Origin: Patescibacteria group bacterium
GTDB lineage: Bacteria > Patescibacteriota > Patescibacteriia > SBBC01 > CAIJZX01
Assembly: GCA_038065275.1 (NCBI GenBank)
Contig: JBBTRH010000005.1
Location: 26,466 to 90,465, forward strand
Reading direction: 5' to 3'
DNA: 64,000 nt
Part shown: piece after piece, positions 15,782 through 62,715 of the stretch
Layout: every line of letters begins with the position of its first letter
How positions within the stretch are numbered: position 1 is the stretch's first letter
Made by a program: the position numbers and the translations under genes
The notes under the pieces: generated by a model
Seen by the model: only the letters and a program-made list of their open reading frames with translations
What the model was told of the DNA's origin: nothing
Databases searched by the model: none

Positions 15782-15914
15782 CCCCGTTAGAAATGAAGGA
15801 AGCTAGTCAAAGCCTCACGGTTTCCTAAGCTAATTCGCTGGAGAAGATTAGTCATTGGATTGATTATCTATAGCCACAATTACCTGCTCTTCGTCAGATT
15901 CATTTCTAACGGGG
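15782..15914. mobile_element. MITE-like element copy A (TIR CCCCGTTAGAAATGAA / TTCATTTCTAACGGGG; TSD CAT)
   Basis: 16-bp perfect terminal inverted repeat; flanking CAT duplicated at 15779-81 and 15915-17. Confidence 0.7.
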
Positions 15915-16101
15915 CATCGAGTCGAATTATATAGAATTATCATCGTCGGTTCAAGCCCCGATGTTCCGCGAAAGCGGGAATTTGGACCCGACCCGACGTA
16001 TTTAGGAGGTGTCGGGGCTGTGGACGGGCGGTGTGGACGGTGTGGGTGTAAGTCGGCGTTGCGGCTATCGCCGCCACCTTGTACAATAACCTTAACTATG
16101 T

Positions 16102-16270
16102 CCCGTTAGAGGTTACCGTTCTATCTAGAAATAATTCTCAATGAACCGCCAGGACAAAATTTTGCGCCGTCTTCCGGCCTCAAAAGCCCGCGAGTGGCAT
16201 CAAGAGCTAACCATAGATAAGTCTTTTATTGGGCACCTGGAACCGGATAATTTGTGTAACCTCTAACGGG
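16102..16270. mobile_element. MITE-like element copy B (TIR CCCGTTAGAGGTTAC)
   Basis: 15-bp TIR; right terminus directly abuts dnaB ATG at 16271. Confidence 0.65.
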
Positions 16271-17644
16271 ATGGCCACCCCTGCTTCGACCGACATCCGC
16301 ATCCCACCCCAGCAACTCGAGGCCGAACAGGCCGTCTTGGGGTCTTTGCTGATCGACCGCGACGCGGTCATCCGCATCGCCGACACGCTGGTGCCGGAAG
16401 ACTTCTACGCCGACAAACACCGCTACGTCTTTGACGCGATGCTGACCCTCTACCAGCGGCACGACCCGATTGACATTGTGGCGCTGTCGAACCTCCTGCA
16501 GGAGCGCCTCCGTCTCGACGTCATCGGCGGACGCAGTTTTCTCGTCTCGCTCTCGAACGCCGTCCCGACGGCGGCTAACGTCGTCCAGTACGCCGCCATC
16601 GTCCAGAAAAAGGCCACCCTCCGTCGGCTGATCGACGTGGCCGGCACCATGCTGCAAAGCGGCTACCAGGAAACGGAGGACGTTTCGGCCCTGCTCGACA
16701 AAGCCGAGCAATCGCTGTTCAACGTCTCCCAGCGCTATCTCCGCCAGAATTTCATCAACATCCGCGACGTCCTCGACGAAGCCTTTGACCGGATCGACCA
16801 GCTCCACCACGAATCCGGCCAGCTCCGCGGCGTGGCGACCGGTTTCACCCGCCTCGACTCCCTTCTCGGCGGGCTCCAGAAGTCCGACTTGATCATTCTG
16901 GCCGCCCGGCCGTCGGTCGGCAAAACCTCGCTGGCCCTCGATATCGCCCGGAACGTGGCGGTCAAGTCGAAACTGCCGGTCGGCCTCTTCTCACTCGAAA
17001 TGTCGAAGGAACAGCTGGTTGACCGTTTACTCGTCGCGCAGGCTGACGTTGATCTTTGGAAGATGCGCACCGGCCGGTTGAAAGACGACGAAGACTTCCA
17101 GCGCATCGGCCACGCCATGGGCGTCTTGGCCGAAGCGCCGATTTTCATCGACGACAGCGCCAGCGCCAACATCATGGAAATCCGCACCAAGGCTCGCCGG
17201 CTCCAGTCCGAACATAAGACCCTCGGCCTGATCGTCATCGACTATTTGCAACTGATGGAAAGCCGGACTGGCGAAAACCGCACGCAAGAAGTTTCGGAAA
17301 TCACGCGCGGCCTCAAATCAATCGCCCGCGAGTTGAACGTGCCGGTGCTGGCGCTGTCCCAGCTGTCCCGCGCCGTTGAACTCGAACGGCCGCCGATCCC
17401 GAAACTCGCCCACTTGCGCGAATCCGGTTCAATCGAGCAGGATTCCGACGTGGTGATCTTCATCTACCGCCCGGCGGTTTACGATCACGACCTGCAAGAC
17501 GACAAGAAGAACCTGGCCGAAATCCATATCGCCAAACACCGCAACGGCCCGACCGGCCGCGTTAACCTGTCCTTCGTCGAACGCCGCGCCAGTTTCGACA
17601 ATCGTGATGAGCGGATGGGTGAACCGGAGTTTCAGGGGGAGTAA
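16271..17644 (+). CDS. dnaB: replicative DNA helicase
   Basis: ORF 16229..17644 trimmed to MATPAS; Walker A ARPSVGKTS, RecA-like C-domain, N-terminal DnaB domain. Confidence 0.9.
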   Translation: MATPASTDIRIPPQQLEAEQAVLGSLLIDRDAVIRIADTLVPEDFYADKHRYVFDAMLTLYQRHDPIDIVALSNLLQERLRLDVIGGRSFLVSLSNAVPTAANVVQYAAIVQKKATLRRLIDVAGTMLQSGYQETEDVSALLDKAEQSLFNVSQRYLRQNFINIRDVLDEAFDRIDQLHHESGQLRGVATGFTRLDSLLGGLQKSDLIILAARPSVGKTSLALDIARNVAVKSKLPVGLFSLEMSKEQLVDRLLVAQADVDLWKMRTGRLKDDEDFQRIGHAMGVLAEAPIFIDDSASANIMEIRTKARRLQSEHKTLGLIVIDYLQLMESRTGENRTQEVSEITRGLKSIARELNVPVLALSQLSRAVELERPPIPKLAHLRESGSIEQDSDVVIFIYRPAVYDHDLQDDKKNLAEIHIAKHRNGPTGRVNLSFVERRASFDNRDERMGEPEFQGE

Positions 17645-17657
17645 CCTCCCCCTCGTT

Positions 17658-17681
17658 CCCCCTCCTTAATTAAGGAGGGGG
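17658..17681. repeat. anti-SD/SD hairpin CCCCCTCCTT-AATT-AAGGAGGGGG
   Basis: perfect 10-bp stem, immediately after dnaB stop; no U-tract. Confidence 0.6.
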
Positions 17682-17741
17682 ATGTCCGCAGGACAGGGGG
17701 AAGTGATTGCCCCCTCCAGCGTTTTTTGATACACTACCCCC

Positions 17742-18041
17742 ATGTTCAACAAGCTCAAACAATTCAAAGACCTCCGTCACCAGGCCAAGGAAATGCAACA
17801 TACCCTGGCCCAGGAAACGGTCTACGCCGATAGCGCCCGCGGCAAGGTGCAGGTCGTGATGGACGGCAATCAGCACGTCAACGGCCTGACCATCGACCCG
17901 GAGTTACTTAAGCCGGAGCGCAAAACCGAAACGGAGAGGGCCGTCCAGGACGCCTTCAACGACGCGGTCAAGAAGTCGCAGATGGCGATGGCCAAGAAGG
18001 CTCGTGAGATGGGCCACCTCAACCTACCGGGATTGTCTTAA
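17742..18041 (+). CDS. ybaB: YbaB/EbfC nucleoid-associated protein
   Basis: 99 aa, MFNKLKQFKDL... family signature; classic ybaB-recR pairing. Confidence 0.8.
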   Translation: MFNKLKQFKDLRHQAKEMQHTLAQETVYADSARGKVQVVMDGNQHVNGLTIDPELLKPERKTETERAVQDAFNDAVKKSQMAMAKKAREMGHLNLPGLS

Positions 18042-18139
18042 CCCCGTTAGAAGTTTTCTTGATTGCCCTTGTAGCTGGTTTAACAATCATGCTCGTATGC
18101 GCATAAGGCGGTCGTTTATAGACAATAACTTCTAACGGA
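18042..18139. mobile_element. MITE-like element copy C (TIR CCCCGTTAGAAGTT)
   Basis: fills the whole ybaB stop to recR GTG interval. Confidence 0.6.
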
Positions 18140-18739
18140 GTGGCGACCTACCCGCCAGCGATTGCCCGTCTGCTTGATGCATTGACGACGCTCCCCGGCG
18201 TCGGCCCGAAAACCGCCGAGCGGTATGTGTTTTCGCTCTTGCGACAATCGCCGCAACGCTTGCATGAGCTTTCGCAAGCGGTTGAACACCTGCGCGATCG
18301 GATCGTACTCTGTTCGCGTTGTCATACTTTCGACGAGCAGAATCCCTGCCGTTACTGCGCCGACCAGAACCGCGATCAGTCGATTATTTGCGTCGTGACT
18401 GACTCCCCTGATGTCTTAGCGATCGAACACACCGGCGCCTACAAGGGCCAGTACCACGTTCTCGGCGGAACGGTCAGTGCTATGGAAGGCCGCGGGCCGG
18501 ACCAGCTCTTTATCCGCGATCTGGTCGTCCGCATTCCGAAAGAAAACGTAACTGAGGTCATCCTCGGGATGAATCCAGACATCGAGGGCGAGACGACGAC
18601 GCTGTATCTGAAAAAAGCGCTCGAGGGACTACCAGTAAAAATTACCCAGCTGGCTCGGGGCATACCGCAGGGCGGGGATGTAACCTACCTGGATGAAGCT
18701 ACTCTATCCGAAGCCATAAATCACCGACAAACGGCCTAA
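18140..18739 (+). CDS. recR: recombination protein RecR
   Basis: HhH LPGVGPKTAER, C4 zinc finger CSRCHTFDEQNPCRYC, Toprim domain; GTG start. Confidence 0.9.
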   Translation: MATYPPAIARLLDALTTLPGVGPKTAERYVFSLLRQSPQRLHELSQAVEHLRDRIVLCSRCHTFDEQNPCRYCADQNRDQSIICVVTDSPDVLAIEHTGAYKGQYHVLGGTVSAMEGRGPDQLFIRDLVVRIPKENVTEVILGMNPDIEGETTTLYLKKALEGLPVKITQLARGIPQGGDVTYLDEATLSEAINHRQTA

Positions 18740-18774
18740 GACGACGGGGCCGGTCGGCAATTGGCGTGGTTTTT

Positions 18775-18984
18775 TTACTCAAAGTCGTTTTCGTTCAACT
18801 GTGCTTGCCTGATGATAGATCGAAAAGTGCCGAACGGGACTTCTTTACGATTCATTGGAACAATGACGGTCAATGTCGTCGGACTGGCGCGCCGAAACTT
18901 GGCGTGACTTCCTTTTTGAGCTACAAAAAAACCGTGCTGTCGGAGCACATGGGTTATCTGCTTTGAGGAATACCGTTTAGGCAT
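18775..18984 (-). CDS. hicA: HicA-family mRNA interferase toxin
   Basis: 69 aa; QKGSHAKF and VPMNRKEVPFGTFRSIIRQAQL match HicA/YcfA. Confidence 0.75.
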   Translation of the reverse strand: MPKRYSSKQITHVLRQHGFFVAQKGSHAKFRRASPTTLTVIVPMNRKEVPFGTFRSIIRQAQLNENDFE

Positions 18985-19192
18985 AGGCGAGAGAGCGAAC
19001 GATTTCCGCTCTCTCTACCTGAGCCACCGGCGGACGCTTCGCGTCCTCGAAGTAGAGTTCTAAGGCTTCGTTAAGATTTCGTAAGGCCGACCGTCTTGTC
19101 CGTCCAAAGCTGGATACGTCAACGTTAAGACATTGAGCTACGTAGTGCTTGCCCTCTTTCCAGACGACGTTTTGGAGACGCAAAGGCTTCAT
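18977..19192 (-). CDS. hicB: HicB-family antitoxin
   Basis: 71 aa; overlaps hicA start by 8 nt; UPF0150-like N-terminal fold (YVAQCLNVD...ALRNLNEALELYFED). Confidence 0.6.
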   Translation of the reverse strand: MKPLRLQNVVWKEGKHYVAQCLNVDVSSFGRTRRSALRNLNEALELYFEDAKRPPVAQVERAEIVRSLAYA

Positions 19193-19359
19193 AGTTTCTG
19201 TACAATATCAAACCACTTGCCGCTTGTCAAATGACAATTTTTACCGGTTGCGACGTTACTTATATGGACATCGTCACGCTGTTCGAAGCAGAAAGCTATC
19301 GGCAGGCAGTGCAACCGCCGCACCTCAACCTGGTGGTCAGGAAACCGGCGCGGTGTTTG

Positions 19360-20034
19360 TTACTTCGTGAAGGTGAGGGTGGAGAGGATTGCTTTCGAGC
19401 GCGTTTGAGCAGAGGGGTGCCAAAGCAGGTATTTATTACCTCCGTACTCGACGATGTAGTATGTATGTTCTTCATTGAGGACGTAACCTCCGTCGCCGAT
19501 GTAATCCTTGAATGAACCGGTTACGGTGAGCGAGTACGCAACCTGCCCAGCTACTGTCGTTTCTGTCAGATCACCGACTTCCTTGTTCGGAATATTCGGA
19601 TTTTTATCGTTTTTATTGCCCTCCCAAACCTTCGTAGCGAAATCCTTGAGTGAGAGCTTCAGCGCGGCATCGTTCGGATTGCTGTACCGAGGATTAGCCG
19701 CTTCGACACTAAACAACGCGCTCTGCCTTACGTTGTTAACGAGAGAGCCGGGTACTCCGACGCTCGAGGCGACCGATGCCTGCTTCCCGTACTCGTTACC
19801 ATACACATCACTATCGACATCGTTCGGGTACTTGAAGGTGTAGCCGTAGGCAGTGTTGGTGAACGTCTTCCACCCGGCAGTGGGGCCGGAGACATGAAAC
19901 GTTGACAGCATCTGGGTGAACGTTTCGGTGTATCCATCAAGGGCGCTCGCTAACTCCCAAACATGACCGCTAATGTTGACATAAACCGTATCGTGGAGAA
20001 ATGTCCCTCGTCCGCTGAGCGTCGGATCGGTCAA
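19360..20034 (-). CDS. hypothetical protein (possibly C-terminal half of a frameshifted secreted protein)
   Basis: starts with TTG overlapping the stop of 20031..20600 in +1 frame; no RBS. Confidence 0.4.
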   Translation of the reverse strand: MTDPTLSGRGTFLHDTVYVNISGHVWELASALDGYTETFTQMLSTFHVSGPTAGWKTFTNTAYGYTFKYPNDVDSDVYGNEYGKQASVASSVGVPGSLVNNVRQSALFSVEAANPRYSNPNDAALKLSLKDFATKVWEGNKNDKNPNIPNKEVGDLTETTVAGQVAYSLTVTGSFKDYIGDGGYVLNEEHTYYIVEYGGNKYLLWHPSAQTRSKAILSTLTFTK

Positions 20035-20600
20035 AACTGTGCCGACAACTCGGTAACCCGTTGTCCATCAACGATGATAGTCGTCGTCTTTGCGTCAGAG
20101 AAATTTTTCGCCTGAGCCTGGGCATATGCGAGGGGCGTGGCTGAAGGTCTGGGGATGATGCTAATCGCCTGCAATCCGGCGTCACATTCAATTGTGGATG
20201 GAGCCAGATATATGGTTGGATCATTTTCTCCGCAAACCTTTGTCTTCGTCTGCCACGCCGGTGGGTACTTCAAGCTGAAGCTAAGCGTTCCGTCAACGTA
20301 CATCTTCCAATCCTTCGTCGCATCGTTGGTAGTGTTCGTGTTTGTAGCCACATTCGTATTTCCATTTGCCATCGGACAAGCGGCAAACCCACACTTCGGC
20401 GGAACACGTCCGACCGACGATCCGTCCGGGCAGACTTTTGCGTCCATGATGCACGCCACTTCATTCGTGTCGGCGGTATTGCTGTTCGTGACCGTCTTCT
20501 TCGGCGCGGTAATCGCTAAGTTCAAGACCAACAAAAACGCCGCCACGGACATGACCGCGACGACGACTGGGATCAGGATGTTGCCTTGGCGCATGTGCAA
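20031..20600 (-). CDS. signal-anchored secreted protein, N-terminal half
   Basis: N-terminal TM anchor, Cys and Asn/Thr-rich. Confidence 0.45.
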   Translation of the reverse strand: MHMRQGNILIPVVVAVMSVAAFLLVLNLAITAPKKTVTNSNTADTNEVACIMDAKVCPDGSSVGRVPPKCGFAACPMANGNTNVATNTNTTNDATKDWKMYVDGTLSFSLKYPPAWQTKTKVCGENDPTIYLAPSTIECDAGLQAISIIPRPSATPLAYAQAQAKNFSDAKTTTIIVDGQRVTELSAQF

Positions 20601-20652
20601 AAAGTTATCCGAAAGTGGCCGGACCGTTCGTAAAAAAATCTTCCGCCGTTAA

Positions 20653-20790
20653 ATTGCGAAGTTCAGAACGAGCAAGAACGCGGCGATCGCCAAGAACGCT
20701 ACCACGACCGGGATCAAGTAATTGTGCTCGGCCTTTTTCCCTTGTGGCGCGGGTGCGATTGGTTGAGCAACCACTGGTTTATTCATGTCC
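20653..20790 (-). CDS. small membrane-anchor ORF (45 aa), paralogous to N-terminus of 20031..20600
   Basis: MNKPVVAQPIAPAPQGKKAEHNYLIPVVVAFLAIAAFLLVLNFAI; below ORF-track size cutoff. Confidence 0.3.
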
Positions 20791-20970
20791 TCCATACGTT
20801 TTTGTGTAAGTTGTTCGTGTGAATAAGTATAGCAAAAAACAGACGTTAATGGTAGTAGCTATCGGCTGGTTCTCATCGGGCAAAACTGCTTTTTTTACGT
20901 ACCAGCGGGTTTAAACCCGCTGGTACGCCCACAAAATAATTAACGTCTATCACGTGCTGACCGAGCCGTC

Positions 20971-21279: not shown

Positions 21280-21316
21280 AGGGAATAGGAAATTGTGCCC
21301 GGGCAGTATAGCGGGG

Positions 21317-23324: not shown

Positions 23325-23325
23325 C

Positions 23326-26109: not shown

Positions 26110-26123
26110 GGGCGTCGATGAAG

Positions 26124-28553: not shown

Positions 28554-28675
28554 ACCCAGCTCCACAATAGCGAATACATCATATCGGAATTCATGTGCAG
28601 TTGAGAAAGAAAAATATCCATGGCGTGGCGATTAAGCTTCTCACTATTGTGGGGCTGGGTCATAAGCGGATAATC

Positions 28676-30105: not shown

Positions 30106-30211
30106 GCCCCGCACCACAACAGTTGATCAGGCGTCACCGAGGGTGAAGTATGCGGATGAAAATGATATGCGGATATTTGGTACATCATAGTCTGGCGGTT
30201 GTGGTACGGGG
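30106..30211. repeat. X-family palindromic spacer X1 (rpsQ stop to rplN start)
   Basis: termini CCGCACCACAACAGTTG / CGGTTGTGGTACGG; fills the entire intergenic interval. Confidence 0.55.
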
Positions 30212-32287: not shown

Positions 32288-32400
32288 ATCCAGTACTACA
32301 ACAATGAGTAAATAATAGACTGAAAAAACATATGGCTGTCTGCACGAATAATTGCGCGGCGTGTGTTCAGATAATGCATTGTTGTAGTACCGGGCATAGG
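32288..32400. repeat. X-family palindromic spacer X2 (rpsS stop to rplV start)
   Basis: termini CAGTACTACAACAATG / CATTGTTGTAGTACCGG. Confidence 0.55.
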
Positions 32401-34703: not shown

Positions 34704-35309
34704 TTATCCCTTTATTACCACCAGGCCGTTCCGCGGTCCGGGCACGGCGCCGGAGAGCCACAGTTCATTCGCTTCCGGCTTGACGGCCATGACCGTCAGG
34801 TGCTTGACGGTAACTTTAGCGTTACCCAACCGACCGGCCATTCGGGTGCCCTTCATGACGTGTTGGGGGAAGGTCGCGCCGATCGAACCGGGCGCGCGGA
34901 GGTTGTCTTTGTGGCCATGGCTAGCGGGACCGCCTCTGAAGTGATGGCGCTTGACCACGCCGGCAAACCCCCGACCCTTGGAGGTGGCGGTGACTTGAAC
35001 ATGATCGCCAAGTTGAAACACCGCCACGTCAATCTTGGCGCCGCGGGCCAGTGTGGCGCCAGTCACGGTGGCCTGGCGCGAATAGCGGAAATTCCCCAAA
35101 CCCTTTTGCTGGCCGCGTTGCGGTTTCGCGACGCGCGATTCCTTGGTCGGCACCCCGGCGATGTGGACCGTCGCTGACCCGGCCAGGCCGACGGGCCGGA
35201 CGTCAGTCACGACGTTCGGTTCAGCCTTGATGACGGTCACCGGCACGACCGTCCCGTCGTCCTGGAAGACCTGGGTCATCTGCATTTTTTGTCCAAGCAG
35301 GAACTTCAT
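34704..35309 (-). CDS. rplC: ribosomal protein L3
   Basis: family match. Confidence 0.9.
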   Translation of the reverse strand: MKFLLGQKMQMTQVFQDDGTVVPVTVIKAEPNVVTDVRPVGLAGSATVHIAGVPTKESRVAKPQRGQQKGLGNFRYSRQATVTGATLARGAKIDVAVFQLGDHVQVTATSKGRGFAGVVKRHHFRGGPASHGHKDNLRAPGSIGATFPQHVMKGTRMAGRLGNAKVTVKHLTVMAVKPEANELWLSGAVPGPRNGLVVIKG

Positions 35310-35417
35310 CCCGTTAGTCCCGTTAGAAATGAATGAAAGTAAACCATCGGTACATATGAGATTGTAATTGCTACTAATGCTTTTTCCGAAAATACGGTGA
35401 TCGTCATTTCTAACGGG
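35310..35417. mobile_element. MITE-like element copy D (TIR CCCGTTAGAAATGA; extra half-TIR CCCGTTAG at 35310-35317)
   Basis: sits between rpsJ and rplC; terminus directly abuts rplC ATG. Confidence 0.6.
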
Positions 35418-35613
35418 ATTAGAAGTCTATTTGAGAAAAACGGAATTAATTCGGCAGGTTGGAGAGATTGGTCAGAGATATAACACCGCTGTGCGGACCA
35501 ACGTCCACCGCAGCGGTGTCAACGTTGGCACGTGTTGTCCGGGATTACGGCGACAGGAGCTGGTCTTGTCATCCGCGGAACTAGGTGCCGTTAAAAAGTA
35601 TTGGCGGGAAGAT

Positions 35614-35998: not shown

Positions 35999-37183
35999 TT
36001 ACTTGATGATCTTCGTCACCACGCCGGCGCCGACCGTATGGCCGCCTTCGCGGATGGCGAAGCGTTGCTGTTCTTCCAGCGCCACCGGGGTGATCAGCTT
36101 AATGACGAATTTCGATTGATCGCCGGGCATGACCATTTCCGTGCCGGCCGGCAGTTCGATCTCGCCGGTCACATCCGTAGTGCGAACATAGAACTGCGGT
36201 TTGTAGCCCTTGAAGAACGGGGTGTGGCGGCCGCCTTCCTCCTTGGTCAGGATCAGAACTTCCGCCTCGAACTCCGCGTGCGGGGTGACGGTGCCGGGTT
36301 TGGCCAGGACCTGGCCGCGCTCGACCTCTTCCTTCTTGGTGCCGCGCAGGAGCAACCCGGCGTTGTCGCCGGCCAGGCCGGAGTCGAGTTGCTTGTTGAA
36401 CATCTCGATGCCGGTGATGACCGTCTTCGCCGTCGGGCGGAGGCCGATGATTTCCACTTCGTCGTTGAGCTTGACGGTGCCGCGCTCGATCCGGCCGGTG
36501 ACCACCGTGCCGCGGCCCTCGATCGAGAAGATGTCTTCAATCGGCATCAGGAACGGTTTGTCCGTTTCCCGTTTCGGCGCGGGGATATACTCATCGAGCG
36601 TCTTCATCAATTCCATGATTTTCTCCTGCGCGGCCGCATCGCCTTCCAGCGCTTTCAAGGCCGAGCCGCGGATGATCGGGGTGGTGTCGCCCGGGAATTC
36701 ATATTTCTTCAGCAAGTCGCGAATTTCGACTTCCACCAGGTCGATCAGCTCGGCGTCGTCAACCGTGTCCACCTTGTTCAGGAAGACGACGATGTGCGGC
36801 ACGCCGACCTGTTTGGCCAGTAAGATATGTTCGCGGGTCTGGGGCATCGGGCCGTCGGCGGCGGACACGACTAAAATAGCGCCGTCCATTTGGGCCGCTC
36901 CGGTGATCATATTCTTGACGTAATCGGCGTGGCCCGGACAGTCGACGTGAGCGTAGTGCCGTTTGGCCGTTTCGTACTCGACGTGAGCAGTGGCGATGGT
37001 AATGCCGCGGGCCTTCTCTTCCGGCGCGTTGTCGATGTCGTCGACGCCCTTGTGCTGGGCGATGAAACCCTTGTTAGACAGGGTTTTCAAAATCGCGGCC
37101 GTGAGAGTCGTTTTGCCGTGGTCGACGTGGCCGATGGTGCCGACGTTGATGTGCGGCTTGCTACGATCAAATTTGTCTGTCAT
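35999..37183 (-). CDS. tuf: elongation factor Tu
   Basis: [19 protein letters not shown]-motifs; 394 aa. Confidence 0.95.
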
Positions 37184-37326: not shown

Positions 37327-37427
37327 CCCCGTTAGAGGTGAGAACGATTAAGGATAATATATATTCAACAACAATGGTAATAACTACGGCCTAACAAAAA
37401 ACTTAACTATCCTCAGCTCTAACGGGG
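37327..37427. mobile_element. MITE-like element copy E (TIR CCCCGTTAGAGGTGAG; TSD TTAG)
   Basis: TTAG at 37323-26 and 37428-31. Confidence 0.65.
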
Positions 37428-38767: not shown

Positions 38768-39439
38768 CTAAAAGCTTTTCTTTGGTTTCCGAACTGACTG
38801 TAATCGTGACTTAATACCGCTTGATAAAGTTCGGATACTTCCCAGATATGAAGTCTCATTGAGGTGAACGACTTCCGTTCGACCTTCGGGATGAATATTC
38901 AGTATCGTCAATCCTCCGTTAGACATAGAGAAATCTTCTCGTTCCACATCGGCTCCTCCTTCGACCATCAATTCGAGTACGGAGTAAAGAAAAAACCCGT
39001 GACTGACTACGAGAATTGTTTCATGGTCAGGTCGCTCTTTCACTCGCGTTAACCAGGTAGCCGCTCGATGTTTGACGTCGCGTAAAGATTCACCACCCTC
39101 TGGCTTCCAATCCCGAAAACCAAGACCTGAAGATTTTTCGGCTTCTTCACGTTCGGCCACCGTCCGTGATGCGAACACCCCCGTGTCACGTTCGCGGATG
39201 TCCCGATCGACGAGACGCGCGGTTTGCGGGTGATGTTCTGCTATGATGTCTGCGGTCTCTTGCGCCCGAGGTAAATTACTACAATAAATTACATCGATAT
39301 GCTCGTCGCGCAATCGTTGGGCGACAGCCTTAGCTTGTAACCTTCCGGTATCATTGAGACCAATAGTACTTGCTACGCCAGGGGCATGTTTATTTTTATT
39401 TCTATCCGTTTCGCCGTGGCGCACTAAAATACATTTCAT
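38768..39439 (-). CDS. histidine phosphatase (phosphoglycerate-mutase-like) family protein
   Basis: LVRHGET RHG motif; ORF trimmed to MKCILVRHGETD. Confidence 0.7.
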   Translation of the reverse strand: MKCILVRHGETDRNKNKHAPGVASTIGLNDTGRLQAKAVAQRLRDEHIDVIYCSNLPRAQETADIIAEHHPQTARLVDRDIRERDTGVFASRTVAEREEAEKSSGLGFRDWKPEGGESLRDVKHRAATWLTRVKERPDHETILVVSHGFFLYSVLELMVEGGADVEREDFSMSNGGLTILNIHPEGRTEVVHLNETSYLGSIRTLSSGIKSRLQSVRKPKKSF

Positions 39440-39646
39440 GCTTGGAATGTACCACACTTGGATAATATTTGACACCACACACCGCGGGTTCAGCCCTCCT
39501 GCCCTGCCTGTCTCGAGCTTGTCGAGGGAAGGAGGGCGCGGGGTGGCGGGAGAAACCCGCGGTGTGTGGAATGATAAAAGCATGGGCAGGCCAGTGATTA
39601 GGCCTTCGCCTTGCCGCCGATGCCATTGTCTGGGAGCCAATCGAGG

Positions 39647-57270: not shown

Positions 57271-57424
57271 TTGATGTTCCTTACCCCGATAGGCGACTAT
57301 CGGGGTTTTTCTTTGCAACTTGACAAAAATCACGGTTTCCCGCTAAGGTAGGCGCGGCTCACGTCGCACCTCCTAACCGATTTGCAGGCTGGAGCCGAGC
57401 CTCAAATCCCCAGCTGGAGGGTAT

Positions 57425-57871
57425 ATGGCCAAGCGTCACGGCGGACGGCCGCTTATTCCGACCGCCCTCAAGAAGTTCATCCGCGCCAAGCTGTTGGGTG
57501 CGGACAAGAAGGCCCCCCTGGCCAGGCAAATCAGCGCTTGGCACGCCGAGTTGCGGCGGGATCATCCCGACTTGCTCGGCAAGCGGAAGCCTGGGACCTT
57601 CTCGACTCTGGTCTACAAGATCCGTCAGCAGGACGCCAAATCGAGCGGCGCGAAGAAGTCGCGAGCTCGTAGCCGGCCGCGCTCCCGGCGGAACGCCCAG
57701 GCGGCCAAACCGGCCCGCGAACTCAGCCAGGAACTCGCCCGGAAGCTGGGGTTCCTGCAACAGGTTCGGATCGCCGTCTCCGAGGCGGAGGAGATCGTCA
57801 AGGAGCTCCGCCGCGTCAACCTCGAAGTGGTCTATCGGCACGACGAGGTCCTGCTCAAGCCGCTGAAGTAG
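57425..57871 (+). CDS. basic hypothetical protein (148 aa), third gene of cassette
   Basis: Lys/Arg-rich, followed by terminator. Confidence 0.45.
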   Translation: MAKRHGGRPLIPTALKKFIRAKLLGADKKAPLARQISAWHAELRRDHPDLLGKRKPGTFSTLVYKIRQQDAKSSGAKKSRARSRPRSRRNAQAAKPARELSQELARKLGFLQQVRIAVSEAEEIVKELRRVNLEVVYRHDEVLLKPLK

Positions 57872-57892
57872 GCACCGTACCATACGTTCAAC

Positions 57893-57928
57893 ATCCGGAT
57901 CTTCCAGCCGGGTGTTTTTTTATCAACC
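57893..57928 (+). terminator. intrinsic terminator (7-bp stem incl. G-U, 9-nt loop, then T7)
   Basis: CATCCGG-atcttccag-CCGGGTG TTTTTTT. Confidence 0.6.
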
Positions 57929-57952
57929 CAGCCTCACTTTGGTTGGCTGATG

Positions 57953-58450
57953 CTAGTAGACTAGCCGTTTCACCCACGCCGGTACCTTGGCTCGACGGAC
58001 GGTGTCATACTGGGGCGAGTACGGCTTGAGATCAAGGATCGGCGTGCCGTTGAGGATATCAAGTCCCTCCACCCGAACGACATTCCCGCGCCGGGCGAGA
58101 AGCCGAACGGTTGAGACGGCAATCGGGTTAGGACGTTGCGGGCAGCGACAGGCGAACACCCCGACGAACGGCACATCCGCGCGGTTCTGCGGATGATGCC
58201 GAAGATGACATTCTTTCTCCTGATTCATCCAGTAGACGACCATAACGTGCGAGTAACGCTCAAGACCCTGCAGTCCCTTCGCCAACCGCCGATTGATAAC
58301 CAAATCTGTTTTGCGGGAGCGCCAGCCGGTCAGCGTCGGTTTCTTGACGTTATTCACGGCCGTACCGATCGATTTCAGCGTAAAGCGTCCAGCGGCAGTG
58401 CGGCGACCGAAAAAAGAGCAGTATTCTGTGCGCAAGGTTTTTTTCTTCAT
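57953..58450 (-). CDS. tsaA: TsaA/YaeB-family tRNA methyltransferase-like protein
   Basis: GLDILNGTPILDLKPY C-terminal signature. Confidence 0.7.
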   Translation of the reverse strand: MKKKTLRTEYCSFFGRRTAAGRFTLKSIGTAVNNVKKPTLTGWRSRKTDLVINRRLAKGLQGLERYSHVMVVYWMNQEKECHLRHHPQNRADVPFVGVFACRCPQRPNPIAVSTVRLLARRGNVVRVEGLDILNGTPILDLKPYSPQYDTVRRAKVPAWVKRLVY

Positions 58451-58597
58451 TGCTTTCAGGTGATGATGTCCATAGAGTTAACCAAAATGTTCAAACACGG
58501 TTTCCGGCCCGCCGGTCCGGATCTTGGACTTTAGGGATGACGGCCCGCCGAACGAAGAGTTGCCATATTCCTTATGATAGCATAGTATTGAAACCGG

Positions 58598-58915
58598 TTC
58601 GGGGTATGGCGCAGTTTCCCGCCATGCGGCGGGATAAAGTCCGCGCGCATGAATGACCTCGAGCAACCCTCGCGCGGCTCAGGCGTGCGGGGCAAGGGTG
58701 CAATTTCTTTCCAACCTTCAGCTCGTCGGGTCGGGGTATGGCGCTAAAAATGCGCGTCCCGCCCCACTGTCGGGGATTAGCGCAGTTCCCCGCCATGCGG
58801 CGGGATAAAGTCCGCGCGCATGAATGACCTCAAGCCGGTAATTATATACTGGTTCGGGATAAAATGATGTGGGCGGAGTCGGGGTGTGGCGTAGCTGGTA
58901 GCGCGCTTGCATGGG
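58598..58915 (+). repeat. array of tRNA-Pro 5'-end fragments with two 55-bp direct repeats (58610-58664, 58777-58831)
   Basis: GTCGGGGTATGGCGCAG-like tRNA 5' segments at 58598, 58728, 58768, 58877. Confidence 0.6.
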
Positions 58916-59042
58916 GGTCGAGACGGCCGAAGAGCGAATGAACTGCTTCATTCGCGTGCCGTCGAGACGGGCAGCGCCGTGTTCCAAAGGAACAGGCGAT
59001 GCCCCGGAGCATGAGGTCGTTTACATTTTGGCGGCGGCGAGT

Positions 59043-59115
59043 CGGGGTATGGCGCAGTTGGTAGCGCGCTTGCATGGGGTGCAAGAGGTCGTGGGTTCGA
59101 GTCCCGCTACCCCGA
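59043..59115 (+). tRNA. tRNA-Pro (anticodon GGG)
   Basis: 73-nt cloverleaf: acceptor CGGGGUA/UACCCCG, D-arm GCGC-AGUUGGUA-GCGC, anticodon loop AUGGGGU, T-arm GUGGG-UUCGAGU-CCCGC; no encoded CCA; acceptor helix extendable by 9 further flanking bp. Confidence 0.75.
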
Positions 59116-59460
59116 CTCGCCGCCGCATCACATCAATTCGAGTCTCGCTACCCCGACCAAATAAGAAAAGTTAAGTCGAGTACCCGCGAAGGCTCCCGAA
59201 AACTTGACTTTTCTTATTTGGTCGAGTATTCTCAAAAGAGTCCAAACGGGGAGACGCAACGAGTCAGAAACTCCGCCGCCCTCATCAAAACCGCCAACCC
59301 CGCACTATGAATCTTGCGGATTCAAGTACGGGACAAGAGAACCCCCGCACCGCTTCGGGTGCGGGGCAGGCCGGAGAAAAATACCTGCCCCGTCGTTTTA
59401 CGGGGTCGGCTCGAACCACATTTTAAAAACAAATTTATTCATTATGAGCAATCTAAAATT

Positions 59461-60534
59461 ATGAAAAAGGGATTTGCATACGTCCCAGTCCTTGTTGTTA
59501 TATTTTTGGTCATTGCAGCTGGGGTCGTAGGATACTTTGTCGTAACGGCTAACAAAAAATCCACAACCAATGCTAATTCTATAGTTAGGAATGTCGGTAA
59601 TAATGTAAACATAATTTCCAACTCTGGTACCTCCGCCACAAACACGACTCCATCAAGCAATTCGAACAGCAGAACAAAATCTCTACCGATGCCAGTACCT
59701 TTAGCAAAATGGGATACTTCATACAATTCAGGTCTTAAAAATCCCCCCTCAACCCCAGCCGAAGGCCAAGCTTTGTGTGATTCGATAAATGATAATAATA
59801 CCAACACATGGCTTGGACCATTAGTAAATAAGAGTAAGTGTTTTGAAATGATGGTTGGCGGTTTTCACGATCCTAAATTCTGCGAGAAACTTGAATTTTC
59901 AACTGCCCCCGATACTCAACGCAGTCAACCATTTGACATTGGTATGGGCTGCATTGAGGACTACATAAGTCTTTACAAGAATTATGACTGCGCCTACCAT
60001 CAGAAAGTTGAAATTCGTGACCGCTGTTACTATGTTCTAGGCGTGCCAAACATGGTTAGTGATCCGGTTCGAGATTGTTTAAAAATTACTGATACGTTTC
60101 TAAAGAGTAGTTGCGAATCAGTGAACAAAGATTTTGATGCCGCTACTCCGATGCGACAGAATATTCAGGACTCCGTGATGGTTAGCTGTTTGCTTGGGCT
60201 TGAACCAAGTGAAGCTAAATATTTTTCCTCAAGCGGTACCATCTATAATGATTTTGTGAAAGAAGCAAGCAATCAAGGAAATATCGATAACTGTTCACAA
60301 TCAAGTTTCTTTCCTGATTCTGAACGGCAACGCGTGAAAGTACTGGTGGAAACGGACAAAGACCAGGATGGGTTGAATCTCTTTTTAGAAAATGTTTTTG
60401 GCACGGATGATTCGAAAGCTGATTCAGACGGCGACAGTCATCCTGACCTTCAAGAGATTCAAAATGGCTACAATCCTCTTGGTCCTGGTAAGTTAGAGGA
60501 TGCTGAAATTCTAGAAGCCAATACAAATTCCTAA
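59461..60534 (+). CDS. secreted/membrane-anchored cysteine-rich protein with C-terminal Asp-rich calcium-binding-like repeats
   Basis: ORF 59314..60534 trimmed to MKKGFAYVPVLVVIFLVIAAG signal anchor; DSDGDSHPDLQE near C-terminus. Confidence 0.5.
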   Translation: MKKGFAYVPVLVVIFLVIAAGVVGYFVVTANKKSTTNANSIVRNVGNNVNIISNSGTSATNTTPSSNSNSRTKSLPMPVPLAKWDTSYNSGLKNPPSTPAEGQALCDSINDNNTNTWLGPLVNKSKCFEMMVGGFHDPKFCEKLEFSTAPDTQRSQPFDIGMGCIEDYISLYKNYDCAYHQKVEIRDRCYYVLGVPNMVSDPVRDCLKITDTFLKSSCESVNKDFDAATPMRQNIQDSVMVSCLLGLEPSEAKYFSSSGTIYNDFVKEASNQGNIDNCSQSSFFPDSERQRVKVLVETDKDQDGLNLFLENVFGTDDSKADSDGDSHPDLQEIQNGYNPLGPGKLEDAEILEANTNS

Positions 60535-60689
60535 ACTTTCACTTAGAACTATTCCTAGAGAAAGATAGATTTGTAATTTTCAACGATCTAAGCGGAATCG
60601 CCGGCTCGTTGCGGCGCCCCGTTCGAACTTTCTCTAAAATACTCGACTGACGGGTGACCAATGCTCGAGTCCGGTATCCCCGACTCTGG

Positions 60690-60727
60690 TACATGAAGGT
60701 CGTGGGTTTAAGTCCCGCTACCCTGAC
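60690..60727 (+). repeat. degenerate copy of tRNA-Pro 3' end (att-like)
   Basis: GGTCGTGGGTTTAAGTCCCGCTACCCTGACC vs tRNA GGTCGTGGGTTCGAGTCCCGCTACCCCGAC; another copy at 59130-59160. Confidence 0.6.
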
Positions 60728-60952
60728 CAAAAAGATTTGATGATTTTTGTCCCTGGCTCACCGCGTCCTTTACGAATGTAAGCAGGCTTGATTCCCGAGG
60801 CCGAACAAAGGCCTGAGGCCGCTGCTGAACGACTCCGGTACTTCGCGAAGGAGCACTTGAGCGTCCTGAAGCAGTGTATTAGCCGCTGGGTCCGCTAGAT
60901 CCTGACCCCACGGGGTCAAGAGATATCGACCTCCCAAGGACGATGTATAGAA

Positions 60953-61054
60953 CCCCGTTAGAAGTGGAACGGATACTGCCCTCCGGATTCGTTTGAGGTC
61001 ATCCTGAAACTCTTTCTCACAACACATGCATAGTTCTCGCCACTTCTAACGGGG
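60953..61054. mobile_element. MITE-like element copy F (TIR CCCCGTTAGAAGTGG; TSD GAA)
   Basis: 15-bp perfect TIR. Confidence 0.65.
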
Positions 61055-61167
61055 GAACAACGATGAGGCCGGGGACACCGCCAGCGTACTCCGACTATAC
61101 CTCTTTGGCAAGAAAAAATGGCCGGCTCGTTTGAGCTGGCCACGCTGTTCCTTTCGGTGGAGCAATA

Positions 61168-61410
61168 CTACCCCTCCGTCACCTGGCGCCGCGCGCTTGA
61201 GGTCAGGCCGCCGAGCCGGCCGATCCGTGCCATGTGTTCGCGGTCCCGGCTAACGACCTGGCCGCCTTTGCGACCCGCCCGGCGCGCCTCTTCCGAGGTG
61301 TATTGGCGAGTCTTGCCGCTCTGGTGGGCGGCCCGGCCGCCGCGGCGGGCAACATCACGCAACTTCTCGGGGTCCCAGCTGGCGAATCCTCGTCGCGACT
61401 CCGATGTCAC
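61168..61410 (-). CDS. KGG-repeat general stress protein (YciG-like)
   Basis: RGFASWDPEKLRDVARRGG...RKGGQ...RLGG repeats. Confidence 0.65.
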   Translation of the reverse strand: MTSESRRGFASWDPEKLRDVARRGGRAAHQSGKTRQYTSEEARRAGRKGGQVVSRDREHMARIGRLGGLTSSARRQVTEG

Positions 61411-61650
61411 CTGGTCCTCCTTCGTGAAGTGAGAACAAAATGGTTGGTGCGGCCGGCCTACTTAAGCACAGCACCCCGACCATGTCAACCCAGCATCACT
61501 TCGGTTCAAACCAGTGTTAATATACTTCCAGCCATTTAATTATAGGTAAATGGTAATTTCCCATATACCCTCGAGCCAACCAAAGTGGTGCTGGGTCAAG
61601 CGCGCGGCGGGAAAAAAACCGCTTCGCGAGAAGCGGACTGAGGGCGGGAG

Positions 61651-62079
61651 CTAGAGACCATCGATTTTCGCATCTGGAAGCGGCGGCGTTTCGGCATGCG
61701 GCACGGATTGCCCAGGGGGTCGCTTGAACCGGCCCCCGTGGTGTCGATCAATCTCCTCGGTGCGTCGGATCGTCTCGACGGGGAGGTGGGCGGACTGCAG
61801 CTGAACAAGCATCTCGGCCGCCAGCTGTTTGCGCTGTAAAGCGTCGTCCGGAGCGACAATGAGACGGCGGAATCCGTTCGTCACGGGCAGGGTGACGATC
61901 ACCGTTGCCTCACGCTGCCGGCATTCGTAGCTGACGGTCGTGACGGATTGGTCAGCCTCGACCGCCGGACCGATAGTGATGCTGGCGATGCCGTGACAGC
62001 GCTCGACGATGATCTTCACTGCGGCATCGGCCAGGCGCGATGAACCGAGCGGCGCCGAGACATGGACGGCGGAATTCAT
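61651..62079 (-). CDS. hypothetical protein (142 aa)
   Basis: start trimmed to MNSAVHVS with GAGGAGG RBS 6 nt upstream. Confidence 0.45.
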   Translation of the reverse strand: MNSAVHVSAPLGSSRLADAAVKIIVERCHGIASITIGPAVEADQSVTTVSYECRQREATVIVTLPVTNGFRRLIVAPDDALQRKQLAAEMLVQLQSAHLPVETIRRTEEIDRHHGGRFKRPPGQSVPHAETPPLPDAKIDGL

Positions 62080-62160
62080 TGGTGTCCTCCTCGGGTAAGG
62101 AACGGTTGGCGGGTACAGACCCAATGACGCGAGGCTACCAGAGGCCACGGCGGTAGTCAA

Positions 62161-62261
62161 CCCCGTTAAAAGTGAAGGTGGGCGGGATGCCATTTACGCT
62201 CAGTCAACATCATATCCCCGATTGAACTAATGATTACTTCGCGGGATCACTTCTAACGGGG
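62161..62261. mobile_element. MITE-like element copy G (TIR CCCCGTTAAAAGTGA / TCACTTCTAACGGGG)
   Basis: one mismatch in the left TIR. Confidence 0.6.
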
Positions 62262-62310
62262 CTAAGAGGAAAAAAGAAAATCCCGGGCGTGAGCCAAGGA
62301 CTTTCGCTGT

Positions 62311-62520
62311 TTACTTCCCCCCGAGGGGGATCAAGCGCGCAGCGCCCGCAACGACAATACCCAGGCCGAGAACCAAGGGTACGATCGCGAGGGGGCCGAA
62401 CTTACGGCCCGAGAGCGCTGCTAAGACGAGCATGGCACCGGCGACCATCAGACCGTACTGATGCCCGAAGGCGATCAGCGGATCGAGGTACGGCGCCGTC
62501 ACAATGTTGATGTGCAGCAT
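62311..62520 (-). CDS. small membrane protein (69 aa, 2 TM)
   Basis: hydrophobic, G/A-rich. Confidence 0.4.
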   Translation of the reverse strand: MLHINIVTAPYLDPLIAFGHQYGLMVAGAMLVLAALSGRKFGPLAIVPLVLGLGIVVAGAARLIPLGGK

Positions 62521-62617
62521 ATAGGTATAGCCTTGGAACTGGCTAATGAGTATTGAGTTGGGAAGGTGCGAAGGAGCGATTGGGAAGTAAACTTACAACA
62601 ACCAAGAAAAAAGTCAA

Positions 62618-62715
62618 CCCCGTTAGAAGTGGATTGATCTTAACTCCAGCAATAATTAAGAAGAATAGGGGGCTTCCTTGTTTCGGGAAAACATGGTCTG
62701 GCCACTTCTAACGGG
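62618..62715. mobile_element. MITE-like element copy H (TIR CCCCGTTAGAAGTGG; TSD TCAA)
   Basis: TCAA at 62614-17 and 62716-19. Confidence 0.7.

Follow-up and report, generated by a model that had tools for sequence, protein, structure and literature searches.

The 64-kb stretch of DNA analysed here (the window), from a Patescibacteria bacterium with a tiny genome, contains short palindromic elements even at essential genes. How did they get there, and how do the adjoining genes tolerate them? A first-pass annotation had described eight elements with shared termini and read them as products of transposition. All eight are confirmed at their places, with lengths of 97-171 bp and with the termini (C/T)CCCGTTAGA...TCTAACGGG(G/A). 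The exact limits given below include the terminal Y...R pair. For E4 the start was corrected from 35310 to 35318, the 8 nt at the former start belonging to an older arm into which E4 was inserted.

E1, 15782..15914: 133 bp, C...G ends, perfect 16-bp arms
E2, 16101..16271: 171 bp, T...A ends, perfect 16-bp arms
E3, 18042..18140: 99 bp, exactly between the ybaB stop (TAA 18039-18041) and recR
E4, 35318..35418: 101 bp, T...A ends, between rpsJ and rplC
E5, 37327..37427: 101 bp, C...G ends, intergenic
E6, 60953..61054: 102 bp, C...G ends, perfect 15-bp arms, GAA duplicated, intergenic
E7, 62161..62261: 101 bp, between two minus-strand genes
E8, 62618..62716: 99 bp, C...G ends, perfect 16-bp arms

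Anatomy of the elements in the window

The motif CCCCGTTAGA occurs 20 times in the window with at most one mismatch, as compared to 3.8 +/- 1.8 times in shuffled sequence (0 of 100 shuffles reach 20). The arms of the window copies are perfectly complementary over 11-16 bp. They consist of an invariant core of 9 bp (CCCGTTAGA/TCTAACGGG) with one variable pair outside of it (C:G or T:A), followed inward by 3-6 positions that vary between copies while complementarity is kept. E7 has one change in its left arm (CCCGTTAAA). The interiors are unalignable, z > 2.5 being reached in only 2 of 56 pairwise comparisons. In a MITE family with recent activity, such a lack of a common interior is unusual. 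The G+C content of the elements is 39-51% in comparison to ~55% for the window, and RNA folding of the terminal stem results in z-scores of -2.7 to -5.7 (E1 -4.2, E5 -3.8, E6 -4.5, E7 -5.1, E8 -5.7).

Perfect 4-bp target duplications flank three copies, namely E4 (TTAG, 35314-17 and 35419-22), E5 (TTAG, 37323-26 and 37428-31) and E8 (TCAA, 62614-17 and 62717-20). E1 (CAT at 15779-15781 and 15915-17) and E6 show 3 bp only, and the flanks of E7 (TCAA / CTAA) represent a degenerate duplication. E2 and E3 lack a clean one; at the flanks of E3 no duplication is visible. The repeats noted in the first-pass annotation (CAT, TTAG, GAA, TCAA and the degenerate one of E7) hold, with the perfect TTAG of E4 in addition, as do the complementary arms and the unrelated interiors.

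The neighbouring genes were likewise assigned correctly before: E4 between rpsJ and rplC, E5 upstream of tuf (35999-37183, minus strand; distance ~140 bp), E2 at dnaB and E3 at recR. The contact is often exact. E1 adjoins the start codon (ATG) of a minus-strand gene for an exonuclease of the RNase T family (15242-15781). The final bases of E2 and E3 are each the first letter of a start codon, A16271 opening dnaB (plus strand, 16271-17644) and G18140 opening recR (GTG). E4 interrupts the arm of an older copy (CCCGTTAG|AAGTC), which itself adjoins the ATG of rplC (34704-35309, minus strand).

Further hairpin elements were found in the window, the last two by direct sequence reading:

28554..28660: second-family element, arms CCCAGCYCCACAATAG; exactly at the rpsH start codon, TATGA on both sides
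30107..30211: second-family element, arms CCCCGCACCACAAC; rpsQ/rplN junction, flanks TATGA and CATGA
32290..32393: third hairpin element, arms CC(C)GGTACTACAACAATG; rplV start codon, flanks CTATG and ATATG
61487..61597: second-family element, arms ACCCAGCATCAC / GTGGTGCTGGGT; intergenic
62716..62875 (approximate): probable second-family element, imperfect arms ACCCAGCACCAC / GGTGCTGAGT; adjoins E8

The last of these is probably a member of the second family, which is the weakest assignment among the listed elements. The insertion point of E8 is the tip of a second-family element. At the rpsQ/rplN junction the left flank copy contains a TGA, read as the rpsQ stop, and the right copy the ATG of rplN; the gap between the two genes is 3 nt in the relative L248, without an element. 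The rpsH site is empty in L248 as well (rpsN-TAA, then 13 nt, then ATG-rpsH), and the rplV site is empty in L247 and L248 (rpsS-TAA, then 3 nt, then ATG-rplV).

Empty sites and copies in other genomes

Five relatives with a RecR identity of 86-92% to the window (L121, L122, L124, L249 and L250) were compared at the sites of E1 to E3. The E1 site is empty in all five (gggCAT|AATCGAG in L121). E2 has an ortholog in L121 and is absent from the other four, whereas E3 is absent from all of them. In L121, L124, L249 and L250 the ybaB-recR junction consists of the ybaB-TAA, 6-8 nt and ATG-recR with no element; recR starts with GTG in the window and with ATG in the relatives whose sequence was read. 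The E4 arrangement is shared with a 98% relative (L246) and absent from L247 and L248, which have an rpsJ-rplC spacer of 164-197 nt. The eight elements are insertions, and the sites found empty in close relatives bear out the transposition reading of the first-pass annotation. Between the window and L121, the terminal 26+26 nt of E2 are identical (52/52), while its interior is 74% identical and the third codon positions of dnaB are 62% identical. Judged from this one orthologous pair, the conserved ends may be a sign of constraint after insertion.

A pattern with 18 specified bases was scanned against 185,579 species genomes (596 Gb) and matched at least 120 loci. Among the 80 titles of matches listed, 47 are Patescibacteria (CPR), 8 Omnitrophota, 5 Planctomycetota and 9 of Desulfobacterota type. 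The family thus spans several phyla and is not restricted to one lineage. No matching family exists in Rfam, and no description of it was found in the literature searched.

In these genomes the 4-bp flanks are perfect (4/4) in 77 of 125 copies (62%), whereas shuffled pairings give 10.4 on average and never more than 24. The central dinucleotide of the duplication is identical in 69% of copies versus 14% after shuffling. The target consensus is R|TNNA|Y: the duplication begins with T in 83% and ends with A in 79%, preceded by R in 73% and followed by Y in 71%. A short duplication, previously given as 3-4 bp, is far above chance in the window and in the 125 copies, its size being amended to 4 bp with the form T-N-N-A.

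The outer position, absent from the search pattern, is Y/R in 123 of 125 genome copies, and positions 10-12 are paired in 83-94%. In an arm alignment of 127 copies, double-sided changes number 45-53 in each of the columns 11-13, and only 4-13 cells there are unpaired. The stem covariation score of 0.312 compares with 0.120 for shuffled arms (0 of 500 reach it) and with ≤0.099 for slid partners. G:T pairs are not enriched among the stem mismatches, so that an effect of the pairing in the RNA is not indicated. Loop length is very variable (28-170 nt). Copies occur in tandem or nested in each other's arms or duplicated targets (E4, also loci L031 and L028). An asymmetric subclass of 110-118 nt has a fixed orientation to the gene in those copies with readable asymmetric arms.

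Placement at gene boundaries

A start codon opening an ORF of at least 60 codons adjoins 60 of 252 element ends, but only 21 of 901 control positions (p = 1e-25), with a register common to 57 of the 60. The stop of an ORF running into the element is found at 27 of 252 ends versus 21 of 901 controls (p = 1e-7), and 17 elements are flanked by a stop at one end and by a start at the opposite end. Roughly half of the copies coincide in register with a start or stop codon, and about half lie away from gene starts. Downstream, a variety of functionally unrelated housekeeping genes is found. T...A ends are present in 44 of 58 start-abutting copies versus 9 of 67 others (p = 8e-13), a preference confounded with taxonomy as T...A copies are mostly from Patescibacteria. 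Nine copies combine a left ATG with a functional right GTG.

The core length (CCCG...CGGG) of start-abutting copies is distributed 33:15:10 over the remainders 1:2:0 modulo 3 (p = 5e-4). In 21 of 58 copies the element can be read through without a stop in the phase of the old ATG, as opposed to 24 of 174 for the other frames (p = 4e-4). The class with in-phase fusion comprises 10 of 58 copies, none of which is open. Length classes of 100/103 and 115/118 occur, and common descent within subfamilies could partly explain the length bias instead of phase selection. In about half of the start-abutting copies the upstream frame is closed by early stops, and in E1 and E2 the old ATG yields a frame of 3 codons only (ATG-NCC-CGT-TAG). 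Coupling by a long upstream frame can therefore not be general.

Gene-boundary targeting is a new feature of the family. The first-pass annotation had correctly placed the elements near essential genes, but it missed the exact start-codon and stop/start placement, the conserved ends and the reading-frame bias. The transposition reading as such is supported with three amendments, concerning the 4-bp duplication and the parent element, the range over several phyla, and the gene-boundary placement with constraint.

Origin of the elements and comparison with known systems

We consider it likely that the elements are non-autonomous, MITE-like hairpin DNA transposons which insert with a 4-bp stagger at gene boundaries such that the split start is rebuilt. 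This reading is built on the observed insertion polymorphism, duplication, target consensus, stem covariation and gene-boundary placement. Insertion would occur by a 4-bp staggered cut in a palindromic R|TNNA|Y target, most commonly A|TGAA|Y, with duplication of TNNA. Such a target matches a start codon with its following bases as well as the ATGA stop/start overlap between genes, so that the left copy of the duplication would preserve the old ATG or the stop (TGA) of the upstream gene. At the right end, the final element base (A or G) and the duplicated TG would restore an ATG or GTG. Rebuilding of the split codon would explain why essential genes tolerate the elements and why copies stand at the starts of dnaB, recR, rplC and the RNase T gene without gene loss.

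The terminal stem may hold both copies of the duplicated site adjacent in the mRNA. In many copies a short frame would run from the old ATG through the element and end 4 nt ahead of the gene's own ATG, at the TAA contained in TCTAACGGG (UAACGGGAUG), or else at an AUGA overlap. Termination-reinitiation would then maintain translation of the gene, and we infer that translation is preserved in this way.

The putative mover is a DDE-type transposase acting in trans. No transposase gene with the ends of the family was found in the window, in ~0.9 Mb of fetched loci or in 120 metagenome loci. In agreement with the earlier statement that no linked transposase is present, 40 scanned window ORFs, most of the larger ones included, contain no transposase domain; a large serine recombinase encoded in a defence island is the sole recombinase among them. 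The previously suggested IS1/IS3-like parent is without support. As no autonomous parent was found, 'MITE' stays a description by analogy.

A possible but clearly less probable explanation is that the hairpins arrived by transposition and are now kept for an effect on the adjacent gene, being more than merely tolerated. mRNA processing, stabilisation, a promoter or a translational control point are proposed as roles. The conserved ends of E2 argue for this, particularly since a single resident copy is beyond the reach of selection among elements, and the strong stem covariation, the reading-frame bias and the fixed orientation of the asymmetric 110-118-nt subclass, where arms are readable, point in the same direction. 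However, in close relatives these essential genes are expressed with no element present, the genes concerned are functionally unrelated, the interiors are unconstrained, Rfam holds no match, and the conservation test comprises one orthologous pair. We regard it as unlikely that the elements are recombination sites moved as a folded single strand by a tyrosine or HUH-type recombinase, comparable to attC or REP/RAYT. Their build is attC-like (invariant inverted core, variable paired extension, unconstrained loop), and pairing at freely varying positions fits a folded strand better than two protein-binding sites. Yet the core has a polarity opposite to attC (5'-GTTAGA...TCTAAC-3' on both strands), the copies occur one by one at scattered gene starts instead of in cassette arrays, and neither an integrase nor a RAYT gene was seen in the window. 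Moreover, attC and REP/IS200-type mechanisms leave no staggered-cut duplication, whereas 62% of copies carry this mark with variable sequence.

A native, non-mobile cis-regulatory RNA, or paired operators for a DNA-binding protein, would account for the proximity to start codons, the strong terminal stem and the 9-nt motif invariant across phyla. It is contradicted by the empty sites at orthologous positions, and the duplicated flanks, the tandem or nested copies (E4; L031, L028), the unrelated neighbouring genes, the many copies (about half) away from a gene start and the missing Rfam match make it very improbable. Chance inverted repeats or assembly artefacts have a negligible probability. 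Under equal base frequencies, ~270 random matches are roughly expected for the 18-base pattern in 596 Gb, and a scan of viral contigs yielded 10 matches, most of them without the features of the family. Nevertheless, the motif is far in excess in the window, and the genome matches share features that were not searched for, namely the outer Y/R pair, the paired positions 10-12, the 4-bp duplications and the gene-boundary placement. These features, and the recurrence of the same insertions in independent assemblies (L121, L246), refute this explanation.

Several known systems share features with the elements. The ends of piggyBac are TTAA|CCCTAGAAAG with a duplicated TTAA of 4 bp, and ISEcp1 of the IS1380 family ends in CCTAGATTCT, with duplications of 4-5 bp in IS1380. 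The elements described here (TNNA|YCCCGTTAGAAG) have in common with them the CC(C) tip, a TAGA few bases inward and the 4-bp T..A duplication, but unlike in piggyBac the target is not limited to TTAA. No piggyBac-like or IS1380-like transposase was found adjoining any copy, and a link to this superfamily is a possible lead, the resemblance being one of a handful of bases.

Correia/NEMIS elements of Neisseria are similar in size (~100-150 bp), in terminal inverted repeats folding into a long stem, in a short target duplication, and in being non-coding with many dispersed, gene-near copies of strain-variable presence. Correia elements duplicate TA and have 26-bp repeats and an interior shared within one genus. 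In contrast, we find a 4-bp TNNA duplication, 9-10 invariant bp followed by co-varying positions, unrelated interiors, a range over several phyla and, for about half of the copies, a position in register with a start or stop codon. The consensus of integron attC sites is 5'-RYYYAAC...GTTRRRY-3'. They likewise combine an invariant inverted core at the stem base with a variable paired region and a very variable loop, but here the core polarity is reversed, a target duplication is present, and cassette arrays and an integrase are lacking.

Rickettsia palindromic elements (RPEs) are also palindromic, mobile and ~100-150 bp long, and in a small genome they are likewise tolerated within or next to essential genes. 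RPEs enter coding regions in frame, and their sequence becomes part of the translated protein. Here, copies lie outside the coding region and in-phase fusion is disfavoured (10/58, 0 open). MIRUs, finally, are short repeats in gene junctions of operons with small frames overlapping the stop and start codons of the neighbours, which Supply et al. in 1997 reportedly took to preserve translational coupling. In contrast to the elements of the window, single hairpins that have terminal inverted repeats and a target duplication, MIRUs are direct repeats in tandem and have neither.

The window copies and their orthologous sites

The terminal motif CCCCGTTAGA occurs 20 times in the window with at most one mismatch, compared with 3.8 ± 1.8 times in dinucleotide-preserving shuffles (n = 100), none of which reaches 20. 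Sixteen of the 20 matches pair up as eight inverted pairs, where the first-pass annotation had placed eight dispersed inverted-repeat elements, and its claim is thereby confirmed. The gene context it had named (rpsJ/rplC, tuf, dnaB and recR) is borne out by the Pfam placement of the genes. The copies, E1 to E8, are as follows.

E1, 15782-15914: adjoins the ATG of an RNase T-family gene
E2, 16102-16270: adjoins the dnaB ATG
E3, 18042-18139: occupies the whole gap from the ybaB stop codon to the recR start codon
E4, 35310-35417: in the rpsJ-rplC spacer, meeting the rplC ATG via the remnant of an older arm
E5, 37327-37427: about 140 bp upstream of tuf
E6, 60953-61054: intergenic
E7, 62161-62261: intergenic
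E8, 62618-62715: intergenic

The window copies are 97-171 bp long; lengths in other genomes range from 28 to 170 bp. Their arms are perfectly complementary over 11-16 bp. The interiors could not be aligned, with z > 2.5 in just 2 of 56 pairwise comparisons. The window copies have common ends but unrelated interiors; related interiors are found within some other genomes (loci L019 and L016/L022/L078). The G+C content of the elements is 39-51% compared with ~55% for the window. RNA folding of seven elements (all but E2) yields a terminal stem that closes a weakly structured loop, with z-scores from -2.7 to -5.7.

Further hairpin elements of ~105 bp with other arm sequences are located in the window at three ribosomal-protein gene starts.

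32290-32393: rplV junction
28554-28660: rpsH
30107-30211: rplN

A unit of 95 bp at 39475-39569, whose inverted arms match perfectly over 16 bp (CCACACACCGCGGGTT), falls outside these CCC...GGG families. It lies at the 5' end of a long ORF (38768-39640) of the histidine-phosphatase family.

Orthologous loci were fetched from relatives graded by RecR identity (65-98%), the best named ones being Candidatus Kerfeldbacteria and other Patescibacteria, and compared with the window. E1 and E3 are absent in L121 (92% RecR identity), L249 (91%), L122 (89%), L250 (88%) and L124 (86%). Among the relatives compared, L121 alone shares E2 with the window, and E4 is common to the window and the 98% relative L246. 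The empty ybaB-recR junctions consist of TAA, 6-8 nt and ATG, and L121 has gggCAT|AATCGAG at its empty RNase T site. Likewise the rpsS-rplV gap is 3 nt in the relatives L247 and L248, and in L248 rpsN and rpsH lie 13 nt apart and rpsQ and rplN 3 nt. Occupied and empty orthologous sites were hence found for E1, E2, E3 and the hairpin copies at rplV, rpsH and rplN. As the same junctions are empty in relatives, the elements are insertions gained in the lineage of the window.

The rpsJ-rplC spacer (35423-35613) also measures 164-197 nt in relatives that lack the element. It contains a long hairpin (CACCGCTGYGGTGGACGTTGGTCCRCRYAGCGGTG), which is conserved and shows compensatory changes from one relative to another, and may be a regulatory leader within the S10 operon. 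At 59031-59126 a tRNA-Pro(GGG) gene (59043-59116) is enclosed by a perfect 19-bp inverted repeat that lengthens the acceptor stem by ~12 bp on each side and may serve as a processing stem; an 18-bp perfect hairpin follows directly (59154-59224). The nucleoside-diphosphate kinase ORF at 62949-63539 encodes 196 aa compared with 131 aa in L121. The match to its NDK domain is split in two, suggesting that there is an insertion or that the start is wrongly assigned.

Target duplication and placement at start and stop codons

The four central flank positions match between both sides in 71-84% of copies, compared with 28-30% at the two variable positions in shuffled flanks. At the outermost flank positions identity is hardly above chance. 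This per-position identity rules out a 6-bp duplication: only the central four positions are duplicated and the outer Y/R pair belongs to the element. Counted with its Y...R pair, the element is flanked by a perfect 4-bp duplication in 77 of 125 copies (shuffled mean 10.4, maximum 24). The consensus is T-N-N-A, preceded by R and followed by Y, with TGAA/TTCA in 31 copies and TAAA/TTTA in 14. In the window, E4 (TTAG), E5 (TTAG) and E8 (TCAA) show perfect 4-bp duplications and E1 (CAT) and E6 (GAA) show 3 bp, so that the duplication of 3-4 bp reported earlier was right. E4 itself sits at a TTAG within an older copy's arm. R-TNNA-Y is recreated at each junction, which fits the tandem copies (L031, L028).

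A start codon opening an ORF of at least 60 codons adjoins 60 of 252 element ends, compared with 21 of 901 control positions 150-600 nt away (p = 1e-25). An ORF entering the element has its stop codon at 27 of 252 ends, compared with 21 of 901 controls (p = 1e-7). Seventeen elements combine a stop on one side with a start on the other. The genes behind the adjoining starts have unrelated housekeeping functions, and in view of this diversity a gene-specific leader RNA was rejected.

A single register is common to 57 of the 60 adjoining starts. Survival after insertion alone would not give such a single register, and we therefore infer that insertion prefers the sequence A|TGAA. In this register the gene's start codon takes its A or G from the last base of the element. 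Ends of the T...A type occur in 44 of 58 start-abutting copies but in only 9 of the 67 remaining copies (p = 8e-13). Nine elements still have ATG (the old ATG) in the left copy of the duplicated target and GTG in the right, functional copy. The recR start is GTG in the window and ATG in the relatives read. Automatic ORF calling extends dnaB (TTG at 16229) and rpsH (GTG at 28565) upstream into the elements; it is likely that automatic annotation mis-sets start codons beside these insertions.

Distribution, stem covariation and mobilising enzyme

One genome per species (185,579 species) was scanned with the pattern CCCGTTAGA-N70-100-TCTAACGGG, which returned at least 120 loci. A rough chance expectation, assuming equal base frequencies, is a few hundred matches in 596 Gb.

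Lineages of the scan matches among the 80 titles listed
Patescibacteria/CPR lineages: 47
Desulfobacterota-type: 9
Omnitrophota: 8
Planctomycetota: 5

Two features outside the search pattern recur in the copies retrieved. In 123 of 125 copies the core is bordered by Y on its left and R on its right, and Watson-Crick pairing at positions 10-12 holds for 83-94% of copies compared with 36-45% in shuffles. The 9-bp core was set by the search pattern, hence its invariance is no result, but the flanking positions co-vary. Across 127 distinct copies, double-sided changes number 45-53 in each of the three variable stem columns. The stem covariation score of 0.312 is reached by none of 500 shuffles (0.120), and slid partners give at most 0.099. 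G:T pairs are not enriched among the stem mismatches.

A metagenome scan with a 15-mer arm yielded at least 120 loci, 42 of them with a partner arm. Given that only 42 of 120 had one, most partnerless loci are probably chance matches. Viral contigs gave 10 matches, about two of them family-like. Rfam at gathering threshold detected only tRNAs in the window and 15 loci; at permissive E-values 60900-62800 (E6-E8) gave nothing and the element in L062 one match (E = 0.28). That the genome is synthetic or refactored and its spacers designed was rejected, as the same elements occur in many MAGs and are polymorphic between wild relatives.

Minimal versions, consisting of the arms and a short loop (28-44 nt) and often bearing the usual flanks, occur in other genomes. 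They could be internal deletions or excision remnants.

L072, 3406-3434: minimal version
L098, 1263-1290: minimal version
L131, L143, L144, L157, L182, L192: 44-nt class

No DDE, HUH or tyrosine recombinase was found linked to any copy in the window or the fetched loci. An autonomous element with the same ends was found neither in the window nor in 120 genome and 120 metagenome loci, with 8-kb flanks covered. Searching all loci for lone arms, distant partner arms (at most 3 mismatches) and duplication-supported long pairs gave nothing convincing. The sole recombinase of the window is a large serine recombinase, and the earlier statement that no linked transposase is present is borne out. This gene (12540-14030) lies in a low-G+C region (5950-14070; 36-44% compared with ~57% elsewhere) and ends beside a tRNA-Lys (13989-14063). 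Also encoded there are an AbiEii toxin, a PIN_8 protein and, together with an N4/N6 methylase, a restriction enzyme of the MvaI/BcnI type. The region resembles a defence island that has become integrated.

L017 (unclassified MAG) was considered as an autonomous partner, for it carries two inverted copies 2.7 kb apart. It was rejected: the arrangement is a 330-bp inverted repeat around a Big_5 gene without a transposase. At 2046-5155 of this locus two inverted copies of a 92-bp family member are embedded in ~330-bp inverted repeats, which flank a 2.5-kb segment coding for a Big_5-domain surface protein. The repeat also occurs at contig ends in L011 and L096, and the segment may be invertible.

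The elements are short, contain only short and unconserved reading frames without transposase coding capacity, end in inverted repeats, duplicate a fixed 4 bp and are polymorphic in position, as is characteristic of MITEs. The MITE-like reading of the first-pass annotation is accordingly supported by empty sites, 4-bp duplications and terminal inverted repeats. Literature on MITEs in Patescibacteria/CPR, on MITEs at start codons and on IS1380/IS1634 ends yielded no such elements. New here are the cross-phylum distribution and the 4-bp TNNA target inside R|TNNA|Y, together with the exact placement on start and stop/start codons, the element giving the first base of the rebuilt start codon.

Proposed translation across the insertions, and known systems

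The core lengths of start-abutting copies are not evenly distributed modulo 3: 33 copies leave remainder 1, 15 remainder 2 and 10 remainder 0 (p = 5e-4). For remainder 1 the frame of the old ATG (ATG-AAY-CCC-GTT-AGA...) ends at the TAA in TCTAACGGG, 4 nt before the ATG of the gene. With remainder 2 it stops at the TGA of an ATGA overlap, and with remainder 0 it would join the protein in frame. The old-ATG frame crosses the whole element without a stop in 21 of 58 copies, compared with 24 of 174 for the remaining frames (p = 4e-4). Split by length class, 17 of the 33 remainder-1 copies and none of the 10 remainder-0 copies have it open. An in-frame N-terminal protein extension was rejected, the in-phase length class being depleted and never open. 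So was a conserved micropeptide, since the peptides of the upstream frames have only the arm-encoded M-x-P-V-R in common. Early stops interrupt the old-ATG frame in about half of the copies, and in E1 and E2 the upstream frame is only 3 codons long.

Between the window and L121 the terminal 26+26 nt of E2 are identical, with 74% identity in the interior and 62% at third codon positions of dnaB. In 17 of 58 copies the old ATG is preceded, at a distance of 5-8 nt, by a -10-like TANNNT box, compared with 15% of control ORFs (p = 0.008), and the dnaB and RNase T promoters of relatives have the same look. This hints, suggestively at best, that many targets are leaderless genes.

From these observations a translational model can be drawn up, which rests on phase and open frames, on the conserved E2 ends and on possible leaderless promoters. 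The target A|TGAA would be a start codon or an ATGA stop/start overlap, and the rebuilt start codon would begin with the element's own terminal A or G. The terminal stem would keep the old and new boundary codons together. The arms would be phased such that the frame from the old, often leaderless, ATG closes 4 nt before the gene, and ribosomes would be passed to the gene by termination-reinitiation. The statistical evidence suggests, short of proof, that the copies are built in a way that lets the downstream gene still be translated. That they form a cross-phylum class of 'translation-transparent' transposons which evolved to live on gene boundaries is a tentative and rather doubtful proposal. 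If true, it would explain mobile DNA inside the ribosomal-protein operons of streamlined CPR genomes.

Patescibacteria (CPR) genomes are usually described as minimal and streamlined. In this 64-kb stretch ~1.5 kb is made up of hairpin insertions of recent origin; the S10-spc ribosomal-protein operon holds four, and the dnaB and recR start codons are among the other sites occupied. The family illustrates how a selfish element can settle in genomes that have hardly any spare DNA, through the choice of the one type of site where the 4-bp duplication and the element's terminal base restore both neighbouring genes. The insertions offer a natural, testable system for translation initiation past a large stem-loop, possibly with leaderless upstream frames and reinitiation. 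For the annotation of metagenome-assembled genomes, start codons beside the elements are easily mis-called. The insertion polymorphisms can also serve directly as markers when strains and populations of uncultured lineages are studied.

Several known systems resemble the elements in part. Integron attC sites have the polarity 5'-RYYYAAC...GTTRRRY-3', form cassette arrays and are linked to an IntI integrase. In contrast, the elements here show GTTAGA...TCTAAC on both strands, occur as single copies at gene starts, and no integrase was found in the window. REP/REPIN sequences are palindromes of 20-40 nt without target duplication that accompany a RAYT (IS200-like) gene in the genome, whereas the elements here duplicate 4 bp and no Y1/HUH transposase gene was found in the window. 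The 4-bp T..A duplication and the CC(C)..TAGA ends may recall the ends of piggyBac (TTAA|CCCTAGAAAG) and of the IS1380 family. Should the elements indeed be 'translation-transparent' transposons, they would be a bacterial counterpart of the mitochondrial 'byp' bypass elements.
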